Shown here one piece after another: positions 3,228 through 33,434 of a stretch of 33,460 nt of DNA. Each line of letters opens with the position of its first letter. Within the stretch, counting starts at the first letter, position 1. The DNA is taken from contig SHMW01000047.1 of NCBI GenBank assembly GCA_008080735.1, forward strand, positions 1 through 33,460, written 5' to 3'. Source of the DNA: Promethearchaeota archaeon. GTDB taxonomy: Archaea; Asgardarchaeota; Lokiarchaeia; Sigyniarchaeales; SOKP01. The notes beneath the pieces are model-generated. The model searched no databases and was not told the origin of the DNA. It saw only the letters and a list, made by a program, of their open reading frames with translations. A program made the translations under genes and the position numbers.

Positions 3228-3719
3228 CTAGTGACATACTATCGATTTATAGCACTCCAACACATAGGGCTCAAAATTCTCATATAATTCATCTATAATC
3301 CCGGTATGAAATGAAAATAATCGTTCTGAAATATCACAATAAAATAAGCCATGAATTGCTTTTTCAGCGTAGTAATGTTTTCGAATCATCTTCCTTCTAT
3401 TTCCAAACCACCATGTATACTCATGACTATTTAACCAGTCATTTTTTTTCTCTGTCACAACCATATTGATTGCATTATAGACATCTATGGATTTTTGGAC
3501 CGCATCATAATGCATGAAATTTTCTCTTTTTTTTGATTCCCAACTGATTTCCATTTTAGCATTTGCTTTCCAATATTCATCATACTCGTTATTTGAGTGT
3601 AATATGATTAATCCTTCCTTTTCATCCCCATCAAATTGTATCTCTTTAAACCATACGGGCATCCGATTGATAGTGATATTTGCTTCCTCTTTTTTATAGA
3701 CGTAATAGGTATATTGCAT
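3228..3719 (-). CDS. Hypothetical protein (beta-rich, 163 aa)
   Basis: Intact ORF with normal composition, convergent with the methyltransferase (13-bp gap). No motif recognised. Confidence 0.7.
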   Translation of the reverse strand: MQYTYYVYKKEEANITINRMPVWFKEIQFDGDEKEGLIILHSNNEYDEYWKANAKMEISWESKKRENFMHYDAVQKSIDVYNAINMVVTEKKNDWLNSHEYTWWFGNRRKMIRKHYYAEKAIHGLFYCDISERLFSFHTGIIDELYENFEPYVLECYKSIVCH

Positions 3720-3931
3720 TTTCCTATAGGTACTTGAATTATAATCTCAGTGTTTTTAGGTTTATCATTAAAATATTTTGAAGCTATAAAAAATTTCACA
3801 TAAAACAGATCCAGACTTCTTTATTAAAAAGATGATTATATTAAAATTCAAATAATTGATTTCAACTAAATTCTTCGTTAAAAAGAATTGTATTGATTAT
3901 TAAAAACCCTAAAGAAAATAATGCAAAAACT

Positions 3932-4525
3932 CTATTCAAGTAGTTTTTTACCTTCTTCAATCCAGCTTCGAACTGAATCTTCAGAACATCCATCTATTAA
4001 AGTACCTATCTCATCTGGATTTTCCTTTACTAAATCATTTACCGAATTTATCCCGATCTCTTTAAATTTTTCTTCTGTTTTTGGTCCCAAACGATGCAAT
4101 TTGGTCAATGGAATTGCCTTTTCCTGAGGAGTCTTTTTTGGTTTTTCTTTGGATTTCTTCACTTCTTTAGGTTTTTTCTCTATTTTCTTTTTCTCTGGTT
4201 TCTTTTCGATTTTTTCTTCTATTTCTTCAGGTTGTTTCTCCTTCTTTCTCTCTTCCAAGGGGATGAAAGGTGTTCGTTTCTTCTCCTTTTTAACGAAGGG
4301 GGTACGCTTTTTTTCTTTTTTCTCTGGTACTTCTAATTGATTAAGGGTTTCTATATTGATTTCATGAGCAGATTGCCTACGATAATCAATTCGGATGCCT
4401 AGATCTTTTAATTGCTGAATTGTTTTATCGGATTTCTCGATCTCAGCTAAAGAAAACCCGTCTCCTGTTCTTAAATGGTGATCACGGGCGGGTGATTGAA
4501 CCACCGATATTATTTCTTTTTCCAT
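3932..4525 (-). CDS. rpl13e: Ribosomal protein L13e (eL13) with K/E-rich linker and C-terminal helix-hairpin-helix domain
   Basis: R.GDGFSLAEI...LGIRIDYRRQSAHEINIETL matches archaeal L13e (GRGFS..EL...LGI.VD.RR.S.H..NV). The C-terminal LTKLHRLGPKTEEKFKEIGINSVNDL is an HhH motif. Confidence 0.8.
   Translation of the reverse strand: MEKEIISVVQSPARDHHLRTGDGFSLAEIEKSDKTIQQLKDLGIRIDYRRQSAHEINIETLNQLEVPEKKEKKRTPFVKKEKKRTPFIPLEERKKEKQPEEIEEKIEKKPEKKKIEKKPKEVKKSKEKPKKTPQEKAIPLTKLHRLGPKTEEKFKEIGINSVNDLVKENPDEIGTLIDGCSEDSVRSWIEEGKKLLE
4262..4321 (-). repeat. Tandem 30-bp/10-aa repeat KKEKKRTPF(V/I) x2 inside the L13e linker
   Basis: Copies at 4292-4321 and 4262-4291 differ at 7 synonymous codons and have one V/I change. 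Confidence 0.9.
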
Positions 4526-4727
4526 TCTATTACCACGCTTATCAAAATTAATTAGGTATTTATAATAAAACTGAAAGATTTTTATTTTTTTCTATTTAAT
4601 ACACGCTATTGAATAAGACCTCTGTTTCTTGCCGATAGCCAAAAATAAATATCTGTCATTTGGAACAGATATGATCTCTTGAAGATTAAATAACAAGGAG
4701 AAGAACCAAAAAGGAATTTTTCAAATA

Positions 4728-5381
4728 TTAACGTTTAATAATTTCTAATTCCGCTAATTTATTAAGAACTTCATAGATTTCCATTTTCGTTTTATCAAAT
4801 TTACGGGAAATCTCTAAGGGAGAATTATTTCCATTGCATTTCAATGCGACAAGATATTCAAGATCATTTATAATCCCCATAGAGCGAATTGATTGCAAGA
4901 CGTTTTTTATGATAATGAGTTGCGGATATTCTTCTGCTATGGATCCTCCCATTGTAATTACCTCGATATCTGCGCTAAAAGTTTTAAATTTACTCTTATC
5001 ATCGGTTTTTCGAAAATGATCAATTTCAGCTTTATGCTTTTTCCAAAATTTATTGCCAATCTTGATTATTGCTTTTTTAATCTGCTCGATATTATCATCT
5101 GCATCTGAGATTGAACAAATTAAGATTCGTGAAGGTCTATGATATGATATGATTATTGTAGAACTTTCTGACTCAACTATACGGATTATATCATCAATAT
5201 TGTGTCCTTTAGCCATCGCTGAATGGATACTGTCGATGATTTGATTGATCTCGTTGAAGAAGTCGGGGAACACCTCTTTTTCTATTTGAGTCTTGGGAAA
5301 TTCTTTTAATGTAGTTTCTAGTAGTAAAATCCCACTATCCCCGTCAATTAGATAAACTTTATAGATCAATTTTACAAGCAA
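4728..5381 (-). CDS. Longin-like domain + C-terminal winged-helix protein
   Basis: N-terminal IYKVYLIDGDSGILLL...IIISY...ILICSISD...IGNKFWKKH...F..F..DIE fits longin topology. C-terminal ALKCNGNNSPLEISRKFDKTKMEIYEVLNKLAELEII fits a wHTH. TTG start uncertain. Confidence 0.7.
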   Translation of the reverse strand: MLVKLIYKVYLIDGDSGILLLETTLKEFPKTQIEKEVFPDFFNEINQIIDSIHSAMAKGHNIDDIIRIVESESSTIIISYHRPSRILICSISDADDNIEQIKKAIIKIGNKFWKKHKAEIDHFRKTDDKSKFKTFSADIEVITMGGSIAEEYPQLIIIKNVLQSIRSMGIINDLEYLVALKCNGNNSPLEISRKFDKTKMEIYEVLNKLAELEIIKR

Positions 5382-8371: not shown

Positions 8372-9157
8372 ATGTTCCAATTCAAATCCCGCGATGAAAT
8401 CGAACGGTTATTCCATGATATTTATGAGGTCTTGGTTCATATTGATCGTGAGTTGGACAAACCGTGGGTGAAGATCAAAAGTATCGAATTTTTTGATAAT
8501 TATAGCCCAGAGCAGATTGAGTCCATCATAATGAAATTTAATTTCCTAACTAAAGAGTCTTGGAACCATATTGAAATAGATAAAATTGAATTTATATTAG
8601 AATCATTGCAATTTTTACACTATGATATTGCCCAGTTGTCTAAAATATTAAACTATAGTGGTTTTGAAAAATTAATTAAGCAAATATTAGCCTTAAATGG
8701 ATATAGCGCACTGAATAATTTTCGCTTCTCAGATAAGTCAAGTTTCAAACAAAAAACTTCGCAAGGGCGTTATGAAGTGGATGTGGTGGGATTAAATAAT
8801 TCACATTTGCTTTTAATAGATGCAAAGCAATGGAATAAGCGAGACCCGTATTCAGCCATTAATAAAGCAGCTAATCTTCAATTAAGACGTGCTGAAGCGC
8901 TTAAGAGGAATCCTGACATCGTAGGAGATTTATTGAAACAATTAAGCGGGCGTTATTTCGAAATTAGAAAGTACCTCCCGCTAAAAGTCATCCCAATAAT
9001 GGTGACATTAGAAGAAAGTACTATCAAACTTAATAATAACCATATTCCAGTTGTTCCAATATATATATTAAATTCGTTCATACAAGAATTAAGTGATAAT
9101 CTTTATTATTTTAAGATTCTACGAATAGGTAAAATATCCCTCCAAACCCAACTATGA
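8372..9157 (+). CDS. PD-(D/E)XK restriction-endonuclease-like protein (Mrr/NERD-like)
   Basis: GFEKLIKQIL..NGY helix, EVDVVG, LLIDAKQW, VIPIMVT. Confidence 0.8.
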   Translation: MFQFKSRDEIERLFHDIYEVLVHIDRELDKPWVKIKSIEFFDNYSPEQIESIIMKFNFLTKESWNHIEIDKIEFILESLQFLHYDIAQLSKILNYSGFEKLIKQILALNGYSALNNFRFSDKSSFKQKTSQGRYEVDVVGLNNSHLLLIDAKQWNKRDPYSAINKAANLQLRRAEALKRNPDIVGDLLKQLSGRYFEIRKYLPLKVIPIMVTLEESTIKLNNNHIPVVPIYILNSFIQELSDNLYYFKILRIGKISLQTQL

Positions 9158-9486
9158 AATTCAAAGAAAAAATTGCGGAAAAATGGATGATGATATTTTT
9201 TTTTTTTCGAGGAAGATTTTGAATATAATTACAAGTTTTTGGCCTTTTTCTAAGAAATCGAACACTTTGGTCAATGTTTTGAAAATATCTCCAATTTCCT
9301 TATTCCCAATATGTACATTTAATTTTTGAGAAATAACGTCAAACATTATAATAAGTCTTATTACTATAGAAATATTTTTCTTTACTAAGTTCTAAATATA
9401 ATTGGCGATAAGTAGAACTTATTTGGTTGAATGAGAATAATTATATAATTTTTCATTAATTAAGATATGTGAGAAACAACGAAAAA

Positions 9487-9493
9487 GTGGTGA
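9487..9493 (+). promoter_or_regulatory. Archaeal Shine-Dalgarno GTGGTGA upstream of the proposed ATA/ATT start
   Basis: GGTGA lies 6 nt before ATT at 9500. The same SD core precedes the starts at 18933, 20096 and 31653. Confidence 0.55.
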
Positions 9494-9499
9494 AGAATA

Positions 9500-10204
9500 A
9501 TTAGTAAAAAAGACGCTCCAATAGACTATGAGCTCGAGATATTACAGTGTGTAAAAAATCATCCAAGTGGAGTCACGATCACGGATATAGCAGAGATATT
9601 AGGATTTTCAAGGAACACAGTCAGTAAGTATATTAGTATGCTTGAACTGAAAAATAAAATTTACAAAAAAAAGATTGGAGCATATTCGTTGTACATTAGT
9701 TCTGAGGAAACAAATCTCCCCAAAAGTTTAATCCTATCTTATTATAAAGCCTTGCTAAAGGGACTACGAGAAAACTTCCCAAACAAAGAAGAGATTTTCA
9801 AAAAAATTGGTCGAAATCAAGCAAATTTAATTAAATTCTCTTTTAGTCCGAATATATATAAACAGCTCAAAAGTTTGAAGGGAAATCCCATTTCGAGAGT
9901 ACATTTAGAACTTTTTAAGGAATTCTACGCTGCATATGATGTATTCCAACCCAACGTGGAAATCTCTATTCTTGATGTTGATCCAAAAGGGCAGAAAGCA
10001 GTTTATCGATTTAAAAATTCTATCTTTTTAGATGATGATGATTTGTATATATATCACATATATTTGATGACGGGAATAACTCAATCCATCTTAGAACGTG
10101 AACTGGAGGAAGATGTGATCTGTAAGGTTGAAAATTATCATATCAGCGATGATAGAAAAGATTCCTATTTTGATGTTTCCATTGTAATTGGAAATAATGA
10201 TTAA
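9500..10204 (+). CDS. Winged-helix transcriptional regulator with V4R-like ligand-binding domain; true start upstream of the tracked ATG 9638
   Basis: The in-frame upstream extension ISKKDAPIDYELEILQCVKNHPSGVTITDIAEILGFSRNTVSKYISM supplies the HTH. It is bounded by TGA at 9491 and contains no ATG/GTG/TTG. The C-terminal IGRNQA...YLMTGITQSIL...CKVE resembles V4R. Confidence 0.8.
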   Translation: MSKKDAPIDYELEILQCVKNHPSGVTITDIAEILGFSRNTVSKYISMLELKNKIYKKKIGAYSLYISSEETNLPKSLILSYYKALLKGLRENFPNKEEIFKKIGRNQANLIKFSFSPNIYKQLKSLKGNPISRVHLELFKEFYAAYDVFQPNVEISILDVDPKGQKAVYRFKNSIFLDDDDLYIYHIYLMTGITQSILERELEEDVICKVENYHISDDRKDSYFDVSIVIGNND

Positions 10205-27552: not shown

Positions 27553-29061
27553 ATGAAAATTAAAAAGTTGTTTAAATCTTCGGTTATAAAAGGATTTGTA
27601 TATTGTGTCCATGACAAGATAGGACCGCAACCTAAATATATCTGGCCACAAGCAGTACCAGATGAGAACGAAAATAAAGAGCAGCCGATGAAGGACGGCT
27701 TGCTCCGATTATCATACCAGAGTTATATGCAAATCGCCATTAAAAACTTAAGCCTATTATTAAGTGATGGGATGTTTCCAAGCGAGGAAGATGAGAAATT
27801 GACTAGATATTTTGCGATTATTCCTTATCCGGATTTTAATTTGACCTCTCTTACATATTTTCATTTTTTAAATTTAAAAGAGAGAGAAAAACCTATAGAA
27901 ACTGCGTTTTCTTTGTTGATTAAGGAGAATAGAAGAAATTTTCTGTATAATAATCACTTGAGGATTAAAACTTTAATTTCTGACTTTTTTGAGAGCTTGG
28001 ACAAAAATTTTTCAAATGGATTTTTACCTCAAGAAAAATTAGAAAAAGATTTTTATGGTCTATTGGAAAAATTGATTGAAATAGAGAATCAACCTTCCAC
28101 CCCCGCAACCACACAGCGGAAAATGAAGATAATTTTAGCTGGTTTAGACGACTCTGGTAAGACTTCCTTTATTTTCACCGTTGATCGAAAATTTTCCAAG
28201 TTAATGGGGTTAGATCCTACTAAAGGCGCAAATGTTCAATCTATCCAAGCATTAGGAGCATCGCTATTTCTGTGGGACCTTGGGGGGCAAACGCGCTTCC
28301 GAAAAAAATATCTTTCCAAATCCCAAATTTATATATATGAATCAGATTTAATTTTTTACTTTATAGACATTAGAAATGAACAGAGATTCAATGAGAGTCT
28401 TGAATATTTCAGAAATATTTATGAAATATTGGAAAAGGAATTAGAACAAGACACTCCTATTATTTTTATATTTTCTAAAGGAGACCCCGACATTCTAAAT
28501 GATAGACAAGTCCAAAAGAACCTTAAAAGACTTAAATCAGAACTAAAAGAAATCGTACGTGATAAACTAGAATTCTATATTACAAGTATATTTCAAATAG
28601 AGTCTGTACTACGAGCGTTCAGCGCGGGGATCTCAAAATTAAGTCCCAATAGAGAAATTATAGATTTAAATTTGAAGCAATTTTCGAAAGCAACGAAATC
28701 CTATATTATGTTGCTTTTAAGTAATGAAGGACTAGTCCTAGCGGATTATTACTCAAAGAAAGCCAAAAATTTTCTTAATCATCAAGGGTCTAAAGAAATA
28801 ATCCAAGACGTATTTGAGATTACGGCTCCACAATTTACTCAGCTTTTTGAAATCTTTTATAAATTTAAAGCACTTAGAAAGAATGAAGCCAGTTTTGACC
28901 TTGAAGACTCTATAATTATCATCAAACAACTTAAATTGTTTGAGAATAACATTTATGTATTATTTCTTATTGATAAACGAGAGAAAAAAGAAAAGATTAA
29001 TAGTCTAATGCCAAAATTTATAGAGAGAATGAGGGATTTACTGGCAACTTATATAATTTAA
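27553..29061 (+). CDS. Multidomain small GTPase: uDENN/longin-like + Arf/Rag-like GTPase + roadblock-like (paralog of 6757-8175)
   Basis: VYCVHDKIGPQPKYIWP; YFAIIPYPD..LTSLTYF; GLDDSGKT, PTKG, WDLGGQ, SKGD, TSIF; LSPNR; LLLSNEGLVLA; VFEITAPQF. Confidence 0.87.
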   Translation: MKIKKLFKSSVIKGFVYCVHDKIGPQPKYIWPQAVPDENENKEQPMKDGLLRLSYQSYMQIAIKNLSLLLSDGMFPSEEDEKLTRYFAIIPYPDFNLTSLTYFHFLNLKEREKPIETAFSLLIKENRRNFLYNNHLRIKTLISDFFESLDKNFSNGFLPQEKLEKDFYGLLEKLIEIENQPSTPATTQRKMKIILAGLDDSGKTSFIFTVDRKFSKLMGLDPTKGANVQSIQALGASLFLWDLGGQTRFRKKYLSKSQIYIYESDLIFYFIDIRNEQRFNESLEYFRNIYEILEKELEQDTPIIFIFSKGDPDILNDRQVQKNLKRLKSELKEIVRDKLEFYITSIFQIESVLRAFSAGISKLSPNREIIDLNLKQFSKATKSYIMLLLSNEGLVLADYYSKKAKNFLNHQGSKEIIQDVFEITAPQFTQLFEIFYKFKALRKNEASFDLEDSIIIIKQLKLFENNIYVLFLIDKREKKEKINSLMPKFIERMRDLLATYII

Positions 29062-29106: not shown

Positions 29107-30135
29107 CTAATTATCATCTAATAACTCATCAAGCTTTTTATCTAAAAATTGAGCCTCATCAGACTCTGGATTTAAAATTACCGCTCGCTTGGTATATTTC
29201 TTCGCTTTTTTAAAATTTGAAAGATAGAAATGATTTAATCCTAATCCGAAAATATATTGAAATTGCTCACCGTCTTTATCAAGGAGGATTTCATATATCT
29301 CAACAGAATGTTGATAATTTTCATTTAGAAAATAGCTCTCTGCTAATAGCCTCCAAGCGTCTATGTATTTAGGATCGATGTCGATTACGATATTAAATGC
29401 CTCTATAGCTTTTCTATAAGCCTTAATTCCATTATAGGCAATCCCAAGATTTAACCATGCATCTAAAAATTTATTTTCTTTTTCGATGATTTTATTTAAT
29501 AAGCGAATTGCACGATCGAATTTCTCGTTATTTATAGCGATAATTGCAAGGGAGTTAAGAGCGTGTACATCTTCATGTGAGATTTGTAAAATTTTATTGC
29601 AAACCCTTTCTAATTCAATAAAATTATCTAGTTCATGTAATATAGATCGCATCGCGTGGAGAGAATCTAAGTTATTTGAATCTATTTCCAATGATTTATT
29701 AAATTCTTTTAATGCCGCTTCAAGATCTCCCCGCGCTTCATAGCAAGTACCCAATAAATAATGGAGATTTGTATTTTTTGGATTATTCTTTATTAATTTT
29801 TCATATATTTTGATCGCTTTTTTATGCTCTCCAATATCCCTATATGCTAAACCAAGAGAAGATTTAATAGCAGGAGTCCACTCCTCAAAAAAATCTATAT
29901 TTTCTAATATAATATGGGAAATCTTTATAACTTTTTTGAGGTCTTTTAAATCTAATAATTTGAGTATAAACTCCATAATATAATCTATGTCTTCTACTGA
30001 AATTTCTTTAGGATACTCCTCCAAGAAAATCAATAAAGATTCAAAAGCCTTATCATAATTAGAGTTTTGAAAATGATTTATACTGGATTCTAAATTATTT
30101 TGTGATTTTGGGATTTCTGAATTGTTTTTACTCAT
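29107..30135 (-). CDS. Tetratricopeptide repeat protein
   Basis: About 7-8 34-aa units (LGLAY...A...Y.K...NP; YLLGTCY; AWLNLGIAY; AWRLLAESY). Confidence 0.92.
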   Translation of the reverse strand: MSKNNSEIPKSQNNLESSINHFQNSNYDKAFESLLIFLEEYPKEISVEDIDYIMEFILKLLDLKDLKKVIKISHIILENIDFFEEWTPAIKSSLGLAYRDIGEHKKAIKIYEKLIKNNPKNTNLHYLLGTCYEARGDLEAALKEFNKSLEIDSNNLDSLHAMRSILHELDNFIELERVCNKILQISHEDVHALNSLAIIAINNEKFDRAIRLLNKIIEKENKFLDAWLNLGIAYNGIKAYRKAIEAFNIVIDIDPKYIDAWRLLAESYFLNENYQHSVEIYEILLDKDGEQFQYIFGLGLNHFYLSNFKKAKKYTKRAVILNPESDEAQFLDKKLDELLDDN

Positions 30136-30189: not shown

Positions 30190-30375
30190 TTAATACTTCT
30201 GTATGAAGGAGGGCGCTGCTGGAGGACAACTCCATGAATTATCGTAAAATGGACACCGAAAACTGGAGGTAACACACATTTCTTGAACTTTCGGATTAAA
30301 AAATATATCACTATAATCAATTTTCACAGAGGACATTCTCTTAATATATTCCCAGTAATCATATGTTTTAACCAA
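30190..30375 (-). pseudogene. Truncated DUF2284-like metal-binding protein (N-terminal fragment)
   Basis: IFFNPKVQEMC...CPFYDNSWSCPP matches the DUF2284 N-terminal Cys motif. It ends at TAA after 61 aa with no room for the rest before the TPR gene. Confidence 0.65.
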
Positions 30376-30525: not shown

Positions 30526-31653
30526 TTATATTTCATCAGAAAACACCTCATCAAATATATTATCAACTGGGCTGAAAATATCAATATCTCCATCCCATTC
30601 TATCAAAAAATCTCTATAAATTCCCTCTACTTTCAATACTAATAACTCCAAATAGTATTCAAATCGTTCAATTTCTTCTTTACTAATGATCACACCATCC
30701 AAAAGTTCACTATTATATAGATAAATGATTTTGTCTTGTTCTTTAATTCTAGAAAAACCCTTCTTGTTGGGAGAGGGAGTTAATTCTTGTAGCATTATGT
30801 TTATTGAAGTAATGGAGCTTGAGATTAAATTCTTATCTATATCTGTTTCTTCTCCTCCTAAATTTTTATAAAATATGCATGCTCCTTCCTTAGTAATAAG
30901 AAAAAGTTCCTCGATTCTATCTTTCCAATCAAATTCAAAAAGATATGGGAAACTAAGAAAATAATGAAAAATTATGGATAATGAGAGTAGTTCCATGAGG
31001 GATCCAATTAATCTTATAAAAAGTCCGAATATGGCAATCGAGAAGTCAATTGTTAAAAAATAACCGATTGGAAGTAGTAGAAACGCTAAAAAATACAGTG
31101 ATGCATTTTTCAGAAAATTTTCTAAATCCCTAGTCCTATTGGAAAAATCTCTCAAGTAGGTAACTAAGAAGAGAAGGAATATAGGCCAAAACACCAATGA
31201 AAAAAACCTCGTTATGGTAAGATCAATAATAAAAATCATAATAAAACTAATTGCAATGATACCAAAAACTGAAGTAATAAAATATTTAATTTTAGCTATA
31301 TTTCTCGTACGTTCTATGAAATATATAAAAAATAGTGCCCCAAATATAATAGAAAGATATCCTAAATTCAGAAAAAACTCCCTTTCGCTCCCTCGGAGCC
31401 AAAAAAAATAAGGTGATACGATATTACTCGAAGAATAATAGTCTGATTTGATAAATAATAATTCCATCAATGCAAATCCCAGGAATATACTCATATACGC
31501 CAGCTCTTCCTTCAATCGAAATTTCTTATTCTGCTTTTTATATCGAATAAAAAAGATTACCGCAATTTCAAGAGAGAATATAAAAATTATCCATTCTATA
31601 ATTAATAGGGGAAAGCGTAAATTGCCTGATAAAGGAAAGTCAATCAATAACAT
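30526..31653 (-). CDS. 7-TM membrane protein with C-terminal cytoplasmic longin-like domain (paralog 2)
   Basis: Seven hydrophobic segments, then FPYLFEFDWKDRIEELFLITKEGACIFYKNL...LISSSITSI..ML.E...L...VE..Y...L..WDGD...F. Confidence 0.8.
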   Translation of the reverse strand: MLLIDFPLSGNLRFPLLIIEWIIFIFSLEIAVIFFIRYKKQNKKFRLKEELAYMSIFLGFALMELLFIKSDYYSSSNIVSPYFFWLRGSEREFFLNLGYLSIIFGALFFIYFIERTRNIAKIKYFITSVFGIIAISFIMIFIIDLTITRFFSLVFWPIFLLFLVTYLRDFSNRTRDLENFLKNASLYFLAFLLLPIGYFLTIDFSIAIFGLFIRLIGSLMELLSLSIIFHYFLSFPYLFEFDWKDRIEELFLITKEGACIFYKNLGGEETDIDKNLISSSITSINIMLQELTPSPNKKGFSRIKEQDKIIYLYNSELLDGVIISKEEIERFEYYLELLVLKVEGIYRDFLIEWDGDIDIFSPVDNIFDEVFSDEI

Positions 31654-31657
31654 TGAA

Positions 31658-32830
31658 TCACCTCATTAAAGACTCAACAATCACGTTAAAACTCCCAAAT
31701 AATAATTGTTGGTTTTTATCAAATCTGTTTAGTTGTAAAAGAATTTCTCGGTAGAAAGATTCGAATTGATACTTTACATTTTGGAGGAAATGCGTTAAAC
31801 TTATCAAATCTTTATTAATGATTAACGCATAAACGATATTGAAAGGTTCGGAACCGTATTCTAAAAGAATGTAGGAATTTTGATGTTTAATCTTGTGAAT
31901 ATTCTTTTCTTTTGTTCCCGTTATTTTAGACATTATGATATCTATACCTACTAAACCAGTCGAAACAAGTTTATCATCCAGGTTTGAGGTTTTCTTAAAA
32001 AATTCCTCATTTTTATTTCTAAAATTATATGAATAGATGCTTTCATATGTATCTCGATTAATCACATACAAATGTACCAAATTATCCCGCCATTCAAATT
32101 CATAAAATGGAGGGAAATCCACTACAGAAAATATGATTATTATGAATCCAATTAGTAATATAGATACTCCCATATAGTAAATGATTTGTTCCAAAAAAAC
32201 ATCCCCAAAGATCCCGAGGCCTACCAAAATGGCAAATACTAATGCCATTAGGCTGGTAATCGTACCGATAAAAAACAATAAAAATTTTTTTTGTATTTTC
32301 CCAACAGATCTTCTTACAAGAATCATCTCAAATCTTAACACGTTAATCCCATTCAATGCAACAAATCCAATCCCGATAAAAAATAATGGAGACCGAGTCG
32401 AAGGGGCGATTATTCCAAAGATTATCGCCAATCCATTTAGAATCATTAGAAGATATATGATCTTTAGGTTCACAATCTTAGCAAATTCTTTAGTTAGAAT
32501 AAAAAGCTCTAAAGCGATAGGGGAAAAAAAAGCTAAGGACCACCCAACACGATAGATGATATCTTTCCAAACGGCATCTACGATGAAATTTCGGGCGATT
32601 TGAATAGTCAGCGCACCAAATACCATAAACAAGATAAAATTCCCAAAAGATACTAAAATACGATTTAGTTTTAGATTTACATCTTTAATCTTATGATATT
32701 GGTAAAAAAAATAGAACGATAATTGGATTCCAATAACGACTGCTAATAGATAATAAAGAAATTGTAATTCTACTAATGGATTGTTTTGTAGATACATGTT
32801 TAATGGCTTATAGAAATTATTTAGACTCAA
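31658..32830 (-). CDS. 7-TM membrane protein with C-terminal cytoplasmic longin-like domain (paralog 1)
   Basis: Seven hydrophobic segments, then FPPFYEFEWRDNLVHLYVIN...IYSYNF...LVSTGLVGI..IM..I...ILLEYG...YALII...FESFY...F. Start is TTG 32830 or ATG 32797. Confidence 0.8.
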   Translation of the reverse strand: MSLNNFYKPLNMYLQNNPLVELQFLYYLLAVVIGIQLSFYFFYQYHKIKDVNLKLNRILVSFGNFILFMVFGALTIQIARNFIVDAVWKDIIYRVGWSLAFFSPIALELFILTKEFAKIVNLKIIYLLMILNGLAIIFGIIAPSTRSPLFFIGIGFVALNGINVLRFEMILVRRSVGKIQKKFLLFFIGTITSLMALVFAILVGLGIFGDVFLEQIIYYMGVSILLIGFIIIIFSVVDFPPFYEFEWRDNLVHLYVINRDTYESIYSYNFRNKNEEFFKKTSNLDDKLVSTGLVGIDIIMSKITGTKEKNIHKIKHQNSYILLEYGSEPFNIVYALIINKDLISLTHFLQNVKYQFESFYREILLQLNRFDKNQQLLFGSFNVIVESLMR

Positions 32831-32888
32831 ATAATATAATTATTATATTAATTTAGTTAAAAAACTTTCTTTATAAAGTTGGAAATGC

Positions 32889-33434
32889 TTATGAAATCGT
32901 TTTTTCTTGGTAATAGTTAAAAATATCTCTCGCTAATTGTTCGAAGGCTTTTTGTATCCCAACATTATCTTTTGCACTGGTTTTAAAATATGCTAAATAA
33001 TCTAATTGATTGTTAATTTCTTTTATATCCTTAGGGTTTATAGCTCCTTTCTTTTCAATTAAATCTAACTTATTTCCAATTAAGACAGAGGGGGGATTCT
33101 TATCCAGAGCTTTATTTACTTCCTTTTGCCACTTGATAAGATTCTTAAAAGTGCTCATTCGAGTTAAATCAAAAGCATAAATTATACCCTTCGCTCCTTT
33201 ATAGAATCCCGGTCTGACTGAAGAAAAATGGGTTTGTCCGCTTAAATCCCAAATTTGAAGTTTGATGTTTGCTTTTAGATCTTCAAAGATTAAATCTTTA
33301 ATATAGAAGTTGGTTCCGATGGTCATTTTCGTATTTTCTAAAAATTCGCCTTCCACATATCTATGTAAAATTGTTGTCTTGCCAACCGCCCCGTCTCCAA
33401 TTATACAGATTTTATATAGCTTGTTTCTGAGCAT
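32889..33434 (-). CDS. Rab-like small GTPase without a C-terminal prenylation motif
   Basis: KICIIGDGAVGKT, TIGTNF, LQIWDLSGQ, FYKGAKG, GNKLD, TSAK; ends QEKTIS. Confidence 0.93.
   Translation of the reverse strand: MLRNKLYKICIIGDGAVGKTTILHRYVEGEFLENTKMTIGTNFYIKDLIFEDLKANIKLQIWDLSGQTHFSSVRPGFYKGAKGIIYAFDLTRMSTFKNLIKWQKEVNKALDKNPPSVLIGNKLDLIEKKGAINPKDIKEINNQLDYLAYFKTSAKDNVGIQKAFEQLARDIFNYYQEKTIS

Follow-up and report, generated by a model that had tools for sequence, protein, structure and literature searches.

A Rab-like GTPase gene and an adjoining pair of predicted seven-helix membrane proteins with longin-like tails in an Asgard archaeon

The locus

The DNA analysed here, referred to as the window, is a stretch of 33,460 nucleotides from contig SHMW01000047.1 of a Promethearchaeota archaeon (assembly GCA_008080735.1). 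Its minus strand carries three co-directional genes in the order Rab-like GTPase, A and B, as claimed in an initial annotation made from the sequence. A and B are each predicted to encode a membrane protein with seven helices and a cytoplasmic longin domain at its C-terminus. Coordinates of the features described below are those of the window and refer to the minus strand unless stated otherwise.

The first gene (32889..33434) encodes a small GTPase of 181 amino acids that matches Pfam Ras at 4.9e-44 and whose motifs are intact: G1 GDGAVGKT, G3 WDLSGQ, in which the catalytic glutamine is present, G4 NKLD and G5 SAK. The top matches in the PDB are a Thorarchaeota Rab (7ezb, 4.2e-35), Ypt7, Rab11, Rab10 and Rab32. 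By its G1-G5 motifs and its closest similarity to Rabs, the protein is a Rab-like member of the Ras superfamily. A cysteine, the prenylation motif of eukaryotic Rabs, was looked for at the C-terminus (...YYQEKTIS) and is missing there, in agreement with the annotation; nor was an N-terminal extension able to serve as an amphipathic anchor found in the sequence. The genome from which the window derives contains 45 Ras-like open reading frames (ORFs) in 4.15 Mb, about 1% of its genes, or 61 when Arf/Rag-like members are counted.

The start of A had been placed by the ORF list at TTG 32830. Since the homologues of the protein align from ATG 32797, the latter codon was taken as the start, and therefore A (31658..32797) has 379 amino acids and is separated from the Rab-like gene by a spacer of 91 nt (32798..32888). 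This spacer is AT-rich, with a TTTATAAA-like element and a T6 tract, and could be a terminator or a promoter. The equivalent spacers of 16 other loci measure about 90-130 nt, with a median of 101 nt, and mostly contain a tract of at least five T residues. As the spacer usually carries such a tract, a single operon with 1:1:1 synthesis including the Rab-like protein is not established.

At the junction between A and B, the TGA stop codon of A (31660-31658) and the ATG of B (31653-31651) are separated by 4 nt (TTCA). A Shine-Dalgarno-like element, GAGGTGA (31658..31664), overlaps that stop codon and lies 4 nt 5' of the ATG, so the junction reads as the annotation had described it. Gene B (30526..31653) encodes 375 amino acids.

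Membrane bundles and hinge of A and B

The relationship between A and B is detected by BLASTP in the tail only (26% identity, E 8e-8), and by hhalign over 344 columns that include the membrane part (99.7% probability, E 3e-27). On these alignments, A and B are judged to be paralogs over their full length. AlphaFold2 models of the two monomers were built with family alignments. The A model has a predicted local distance difference test score (pLDDT) of 84.3 and a predicted template modelling score of 0.75, and the B model a pLDDT of 81.8. In A, helices span residues 7-37, 43-71, 75-100, 111-130, 137-163, 166-193 and 200-225. The B model likewise has seven transmembrane (TM) helices, of which DSSP splits the sixth into residues 180-201 and 203-209 and so lists eight. 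The bundles, whose helix number had been correctly called in the annotation, comprise residues 7-225 of A (32123..32779) and 13-234 of B (30952..31617).

Between TM7 and the longin domain lies a hinge common to both proteins, also recognized earlier, that reads FPPFYEFEW in A (residues 228-236; 32090..32116) and FPYLFEFDW in B (residues 235-243; 30925..30951). In the family alignments the hinge is the most conserved motif; in A, Glu233 and Phe234 are invariant, and Phe228 and Pro229 are conserved at 98%. Lysine and arginine residues, counted on the same alignments, concentrate in loops 1, 3 and 5 (10.3 in A and 13.9 in B), against 2.8 in A and 2.3 in B for the N-terminus together with loops 2, 4 and 6. 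Because of this distribution the N-terminus is predicted to be outside and the longin domain in the cytoplasm. Apart from the conserved TM2-TM3 loop of B, loops on the outer side are very short.

Several polar residues are conserved in the bundle of A (Glu10, Gln25, Tyr29, Tyr34, Lys36 and Asn45), and the cytoplasmic ends of its TM1 and TM2, which adjoin the hinge, are strongly conserved. The bundle of B has conserved intramembrane charges at Glu20, Glu29, Glu114, Asp203 and Arg214. Moreover, the bundles are conserved at least as well as the longin tails, the profile of A scoring 293 bits over the membrane part versus 173 bits over the tail. The conserved buried charges, together with the conserved cytoplasmic ends of TM1 and TM2, argue that the bundles would do more than anchor A and B.

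Pfam searches with the membrane domains of A and B, taken up to E 1, found no family, and the ESM Atlas scores of the A domain were 0.86 or lower. Comparison of this domain with HisKA_7TM, one of the folds proposed in the annotation, gave noise level (ESM Atlas 0.82, 10% of members). The top structural matches of the bundle are almost all G-protein-coupled receptors (GPCRs), namely ADGRL3, CD97 and the GABA-B receptor, with root mean square deviation (rmsd) of 4.0-4.9 Å and identity of 8-11%. For ADGRL3 (8jmt_A) the Z score is 12.8 with A and 13.7 with B, at rmsd of about 4.5 Å, where the noise bar for helical bundles is about 13, and Foldseek places the bundle against GPCRs at E 0.02 or worse. 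Similar scores are reached by microbial rhodopsins, ACER3 and a de novo designed bundle. Homology to GPCRs is not established, since the fold scores are at noise level and no sequence family matches. The analogy with GPCRs drawn in the annotation holds for the seven helices and for their predicted orientation, N-terminus outside and C-terminus inside, and is borderline for the fold. Two other candidates were rejected. In a PAQR/ACER3-like hydrolase (fold Z 10.5-11) the helices would be expected to bear the conserved His/Asp/Ser residues of the metal site, which A and B lack. As to a microbial rhodopsin, in which a lysine of helix 7 binds retinal, the conserved residues of TM7 are Gly210 and Gly217 in A and Arg214, Gly217 and Gln221 in B, with no conserved lysine.

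The longin tails

After the hinge, both models contain a domain of about 135-140 amino acids with longin topology, assigned to residues 240-379 of A (31661..32080) and 247-375 of B (30529..30915). The order of elements is beta-beta-alpha-beta-beta-beta-alpha(-alpha), with no N-terminal helix and with the C-terminal helices lying against the sheet. According to DSSP, the A tail has strands at residues 240-247 and 253-258, a helix at 271-293, strands at 302-305, 308-314 and 321-327, and a helix at 332-348 followed by short helices; the secondary structure of the B tail is equivalent.

Foldseek against the PDB returned nothing at E 0.001 or better, its top matches for the A tail being Trs23/Bet5, and the fold became visible in a wide search with VIA-align. 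The A tail aligns with CPLANE (7q3d_C) at Z 13.3 (rmsd 2.8 Å, 123 amino acids), Bet5 (3cue_C) at 12.7, MON1A (9lol_A) at 12.2 and BLOC-3 (8zwc_B) at 12.0, and more weakly, at Z 10-11, with adaptor protein (AP) sigma subunits, SRX, VAMP7 and Sec22. For the B tail the values are 12.0 with CPLANE 7q3d_C, 11.9 with the VAMP7 longin, 11.8 with Sec22 and 11.2 with synbindin, AP2 sigma falling within the same range. The SRX longins among the fold matches are 5ck3_A (Z 10.8), 2go5_1 (Z 11.2) and 6frk_y (Z 11.0); a Loki longin dimer (8yqg_B) and the MK-D1 roadblock 9jue_D are found there as well. Roadblocks (9jue_D, 3kye_A and MglB) reach Z 9.9-10.3 with the A tail, 2-3 units below the longins.

Sequence comparison gives weak signals that nevertheless agree with one another. 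A has no Pfam match and its profile search of the PDB gave nothing; B approaches Pfam Sybindin at 0.055, under the cut-off, and Trs23 ranks on top of the PDB with the B profile at E 0.14. In addition, hhalign relates the B tail (96.5%, E 9e-10) to L043, a soluble longin of 135 amino acids from the same genome that belongs to Pfam Fuz_longin_1 at 5.8e-8, above the cut-off. Taken as models, the tails are supported as longin folds, as had been claimed: they reach Z 11.2-13.3 with solved longins, roadblocks score lower, and the topology begins with strands. Membership of the roadblock/LC7 group (MglB, CvnB, LAMTOR) was rejected on the two initial strands, the terminal helices and the lower scores. 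A longin SNARE such as Sec22, Ykt6 or VAMP7 was also rejected, as A and B have the membrane part ahead of the longin, the reverse of the SNARE order, and lack a coiled coil. Together with the hinge, the longin alpha1 helix (SGGI.GI / SGAI.S.N) is the best-conserved soluble part of the proteins.

Conservation of the pair and of its Ras-like neighbour

A survey with a hinge-motif pattern and tblastn, restricted to one genome per species, yielded 35 loci from other species. Essentially all are Asgard, in metagenome-assembled genomes with Loki-type, Hel-, Hermod-, Hod-, Odin- and Sigyn- labels. B directly follows A in every locus that extends far enough (34/34), and the two genes are no more than 14 nt apart in 27 of these 34, with a median gap of 12 nt. 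As the order is kept in all evaluable loci, the arrangement is far beyond chance, and these data support A-B as an obligate, tightly spaced pair, probably read as a tight bicistron.

Besides the window, 16 of the 33 other evaluable loci have a Ras-like gene directly upstream and co-directional. Six more have one elsewhere: in four it lies 1.3-5 kb upstream, another has it directly downstream, and in the last it is divergent. The expectation that genes of this kind would be enriched beside Rab-like genes is thus borne out: the enrichment is strong, at 16/33 versus a genome background of about 1%, and extends to several independent clades and to two paralogous pair types. In a tree built from the neighbouring GTPases and all Ras-like paralogs of the window genome, the neighbours fall into at least three separate Rab-like clades. 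The first includes the window and loci L001 and L002, joined by four distal cases, the second eleven loci and the third three loci. Monophyly of the neighbouring GTPases is rejected by the approximately unbiased (AU) test (p 2e-9, or 3e-4 with nearby cases included), which discards the idea that one Rab subfamily is dedicated to the pair and inherited along with it. The GTPase clades track subclades of the A tree. Since the neighbours span at least three GTPase subfamilies, the association recurs and is not only inherited.

The window genome contains a second, more diverged A'-B' pair of an older paralogous type, type II, on contig C62, with a divergent Ras-like gene about 200-300 nt away. The type II trio was also found in three of four extra pairs from genomes whose type-I pair has no Rab-like neighbour, and locus L019 holds another diverged trio. 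Within the window genome, a Ras-like neighbour accompanies each of the two A-B pairs but is found beside none of the approximately eight single membrane-longin genes. Paired seven-helix longin genes are therefore linked to Rab-like genes repeatedly, in different paralog types, in different orientations and with different GTPase subfamilies.

A HMMER search of 1.84 billion representative sequences gave 586 clusters at E ≤0.001 and 135 at ≤1e-30, nearly all of the former being proteins of about 370-390 amino acids or fragments of them. A match at ≤1e-20 occurs in 86 of 400 genomes of the phylum, mainly within the window's family (65 of 134) and class, and two other families have distant members. 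All labelled sequences among the 116 homologues of A are Asgard and, where named, the proteins are annotated as hypothetical.

Some of these loci have peculiarities of their own. The type II Ras-like genes (C62, which is L048:3990-4523, plus strand; L064:2857-3396; L065; and L066:277-~840, minus strand) encode the P-loop in frame upstream of the first ATG, GTG or TTG. In all four, ATA, ATC or ATT comes after GAGGGG..AAGG, and the AGG ATC of L064 is immediately preceded by a TAA stop. This suggests a conserved non-canonical start at an isoleucine codon about 6 nt after the Shine-Dalgarno-like element. Gene callers would shorten such GTPases to about 140 amino acids devoid of the P-loop. Locus L018 (DATKTW010000108.1), titled 'Candidatus Nanopelagicaceae bacterium', has a trio and flanks nearly identical to those of the Asgard locus L017, and therefore is probably a mis-binned contig and not a bacterial occurrence. 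In L017 itself, proteins of about 520 amino acids with Ras-like domains (3581-5146 and 8426-9982; phmmer 3e-23 and 8e-27) flank the trio, so that three GTPase genes cluster around one pair. In L013 (7115-8288) B is split into two ORFs of 196 and 173 amino acids, which would reflect a frameshift, a pseudogene or a fault of the assembly.

Surrounding genes and related longin proteins

No further gene is kept with the pair in the relatives. Downstream of B lie a tetratricopeptide repeat (TPR) gene (29107-30135; 342 amino acids) and, between the two, an ORF of 61 amino acids (30190-30375) that corresponds to the first 38 of the 161 positions of the DUF2284 metal-binding family (5.5e-8) and looks like a truncated remnant. 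Both the TPR gene and the DUF2284 fragment were rejected as parts of the module, as neither stands beside the pair in its closest relatives, L001 and L002. Two genes from the trio, on the opposite strand (27553-29061, plus), a protein of 502 amino acids is encoded that has a Gtr1/RagA-like G domain (residues 192-406; Pfam 6.4e-22) with N- and C-terminal extensions. This gene is probably a separate module, since it was not found beside the pair in relatives.

About eight further multi-pass proteins of the window genome, most of about 370 amino acids, have a related C-terminal longin tail. Their genes are single (C32:30743-31846, C7:974-2089, C93:1149-2270, C67:17447-18556, C1:4393-5526, C12:42787-43893, C28:5852-7420 and C84:15047-17260), and two of the proteins are longer, with more hydrophobic segments. 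The hydropathy counter used on them is crude and over-splits helices, and was relied on solely for the finding that these single-copy relatives are multi-pass over their first 230 or so residues. Several large proteins of the genome contain internal copies of a longin-related domain. A small-GTPase neighbour was sought within 3 kb of these membrane-longin and large longin-related genes, and none was found.

Proposed function and alternatives

The longin is a fold used by eukaryotes to control Rabs. As each of the two proteins ends in a longin domain predicted to be intracellular, A-B is a candidate membrane partner of the Rab-like switch. A and B would be made together from the tight bicistron and would insert in the cytoplasmic membrane with the N-terminus outside. 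The two different longins would then sit side by side on the cytoplasmic face, where they would probably form a heterodimer like that of Bet5-Trs23 or of the first longin domains of Mon1-Ccz1. This platform would bind the neighbouring soluble, lipid-free Rab-like GTPase, give it a membrane address and control or read its nucleotide state, while the bundles would probably relay to the longin pair some cue from the membrane or from a small molecule. Heterodimer formation is suggested by the conservation of the pair and its tight spacing; from the context described above we infer the binding and regulation of the Rab-like protein, and the sensing. A role of A-B as a membrane-integral longin heterodimer on which the Rab-like GTPase docks, and by which the nucleotide state of that GTPase is set or read, is considered moderately probable.

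Within this model three modes of action were envisaged. Most longin heterodimers with a known action on Rabs are guanine-nucleotide exchange factors (GEFs), and these are also the top fold matches of the tails, so that a GEF-like role is slightly favoured. A nucleotide-state-specific anchor or effector would come close behind, and a GTPase-activating protein (GAP) would be the least probable of the three, though still a serious candidate. A narrower version of the model was also considered, in which A-B is a heterodimeric seven-helix receptor whose longin pair acts as a signal-gated exchange factor for the soluble Rab-like GTPase; this was the proposal of the initial annotation, and in so complete a form it is thought unlikely. 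If true, it would constitute a receptor-to-small-GTPase pathway made from the longin-Rab pairing on which organelle identity relies in eukaryotes. In Asgard archaea the pathway would already have been integrated in the membrane before prenylation arose, and it would explain how Asgard Rab-like proteins devoid of lipid reach membranes.

Several observations weigh against a longin platform for the Rab-like GTPase. The long spacer with its T-tract contrasts with the coupling of A to B and may split the transcription units. Roughly a third of the type-I pairs are without a nearby Ras-like gene, and the neighbour counts are not phylogenetically independent. A TRAPP Bet3-like partner was looked for in the locus and is absent from it, and the structures of A and B are predicted models. 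Moreover, neither tail has a conserved arginine finger: the highest share of arginine at any position is 62%, at Arg237 of A, in the hinge and outside the longin core. Because no tail arginine is conserved, a GAP with an arginine finger of the kind found in FLCN-FNIP, GATOR1 Nprl2-Nprl3 or C9orf72-SMCR8 is disfavoured. A GAP mode like that of MglB, which requires no arginine finger, or a GTP-specific anchor like SRX would be compatible with this.

The relation between the partners could also be the inverse, with A-B as an effector of the Rab-like GTPase, whose GTP-bound form would bind the tails and gate an activity of the bundle such as transport, a channel or lipid handling. The model for this arrangement is the contact between SR-beta-GTP and the SRX longin of SR-alpha, and the fold matches of the tails include SRX longins. 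The higher conservation of the A bundle than of its tail fits such an arrangement, the buried charges Glu20, Glu29, Asp203 and Arg214 of B would befit a working membrane module, and the very short outside loops argue against a large ligand-binding surface. However, no transporter or enzyme family was matched in Pfam (E up to 1) or in the ESM Atlas (below 0.9), the bundles have no conserved His/Asp metal sites like those of the PAQR/ACER3 matches, and the precedent of GEFs among the longin heterodimers points the other way. An effector role is regarded as a tentative possibility, on the unlikely side.

It could further be supposed that A-B is independent of the Rab-like neighbour and serves as a scaffold in the membrane. 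Its longins would then have other partners, such as Arf/Rag-like GTPases or adaptor-like proteins, or would bind each other only, and the adjacent Rab-like gene would simply reflect the richness of Asgard genomes in small GTPases. The pairs that have no Ras-like neighbour would be accounted for, as would a spacer acting as a transcription boundary. Moreover, small GTPases are encoded by about 61 ORFs of the window genome, and related longin domains occur in more than 20 further proteins of that genome. The GTPase genes of MK-D1 are generally outside operons with roadblock or longin genes (Tran et al., PMC10933270). Nevertheless, adjacency in about half of the loci at one particular gene slot stands against the background of about 1%, and the linkage recurs with at least three Rab-like subfamilies and with two pair types of different orientation. 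Because of this recurrence, inherited synteny or chance alone is insufficient, and independence is held to be quite improbable. Finally, a true GPCR-type receptor homologous to eukaryotic seven-helix receptors, with the longin pair as its G-protein coupling surface, would agree with the helix number, the orientation and the identity of the top matches, but it is very improbable given Z scores at the noise bar, the high rmsd and low identity, the Foldseek values, the absence of a Pfam 7tm match and the equal performance of rhodopsins, ACER3 and a designed bundle.

A membrane-integral longin pair that docks the Rab-like GTPase would be of interest for several reasons. In Asgard genomes, Rab-, Arf- and Rag-like GTPases number in the dozens and longin and roadblock proteins are numerous as well, and to our knowledge almost nothing is known on which regulator serves which of these GTPases. 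The trio is a rare case in which the genome points to a specific switch, a specific longin pair and a built-in membrane address. The three proteins are small enough to be expressed, which places assays of binding, exchange and hydrolysis, and a structure of the complex, within reach. If the link holds, the partnership of longins and Rabs at membranes would predate eukaryotes. The manner in which Asgard GTPases that have no lipid anchor meet the membrane is a question posed by Dey, Thattai and Baum (PMC4917890), and gene neighbourhoods seldom reveal pairs of regulator and GTPase in Asgard archaea (Tran et al., PMC10933270).

Comparison with known systems

Asgard Rab, roadblock, longin and TRAPPC3 proteins have been characterised in a study that does not mention membrane-fused longins (Tran et al. 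2024, PMC10933270). A preprint by Liu et al. (2020) predicts a candidate GEF function for an operon of LAMTOR1-like, Rab-like and DENN genes and defines many roadblock/longin Asgard clusters of orthologous genes (asCOGs); its main text, as distinct from its supplementary asCOG tables, contains no membrane-longin fusion. A structural-clustering preprint of 2026 includes '7TM proteins' and a class C GPCR-like family in its Asgard-eukaryote clusters, but has no longin fusions there. A full-text literature search, to which supplementary asCOG tables are external, found neither a multi-pass membrane-longin fusion nor this trio, which is apparently undescribed.

The soluble longin and roadblock proteins of Asgard archaea come from the same lineage as the A-B trio and belong to the same parts list. 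In bacteria, the MglA-MglB system and the actinobacterial conservons (CvnA-D; PMC13343842) also gather in one neighbourhood a membrane protein, a domain of the roadblock/longin superfamily and a Ras-like GTPase. These systems have a roadblock topology, MglB as a GAP, a histidine-kinase-like sensor and a DUF742 protein, whereas the tails of A and B have longin topology and are part of the membrane proteins themselves, the two proteins form a pair of paralogs, and no kinase accompanies them.

The closest parallels are found in eukaryotes. TRAPP, with Bet5/TRAPPC1 and Trs23/TRAPPC4, Mon1-Ccz1, Fuzzy-Inturned of CPLANE and Hps1-Hps4 of BLOC-3 resemble the trio in having two longin paralogs and a client, here a candidate one, of the Rab type, and eukaryotic longin Rab GEFs are among the best structural matches of both tails. 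A and B differ from the tri-longin GEFs in having one longin each instead of three, and from TRAPP in that no Bet3-type subunit accompanies them. In addition, the eukaryotic GEF complexes are peripheral, whereas the longins of A and B, for which the GEF role is a candidate one, are fused to seven-helix membrane domains.

The receptor of the signal recognition particle (SRP), formed by the SRX domain of SR-alpha and by SR-beta, also joins a longin and a small GTPase at the membrane, a pairing that is putative in the trio. The binding of SRX to SR-beta depends on the nucleotide state. The anchoring is different, as in the trio the longin would be membrane-integral and the GTPase soluble, while SR-beta is itself membrane-anchored, and the GTPase of the trio is Rab-like and not Arf/SR-beta-like. 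Similarly, A and B share with GPCRs the seven helices, an N-terminus predicted to be outside and a surface on the cytoplasmic side that a GTPase would contact. However, the candidate partner is a small Rab-like GTPase instead of a heterotrimeric G protein, and the coupling element would be the fused longin.

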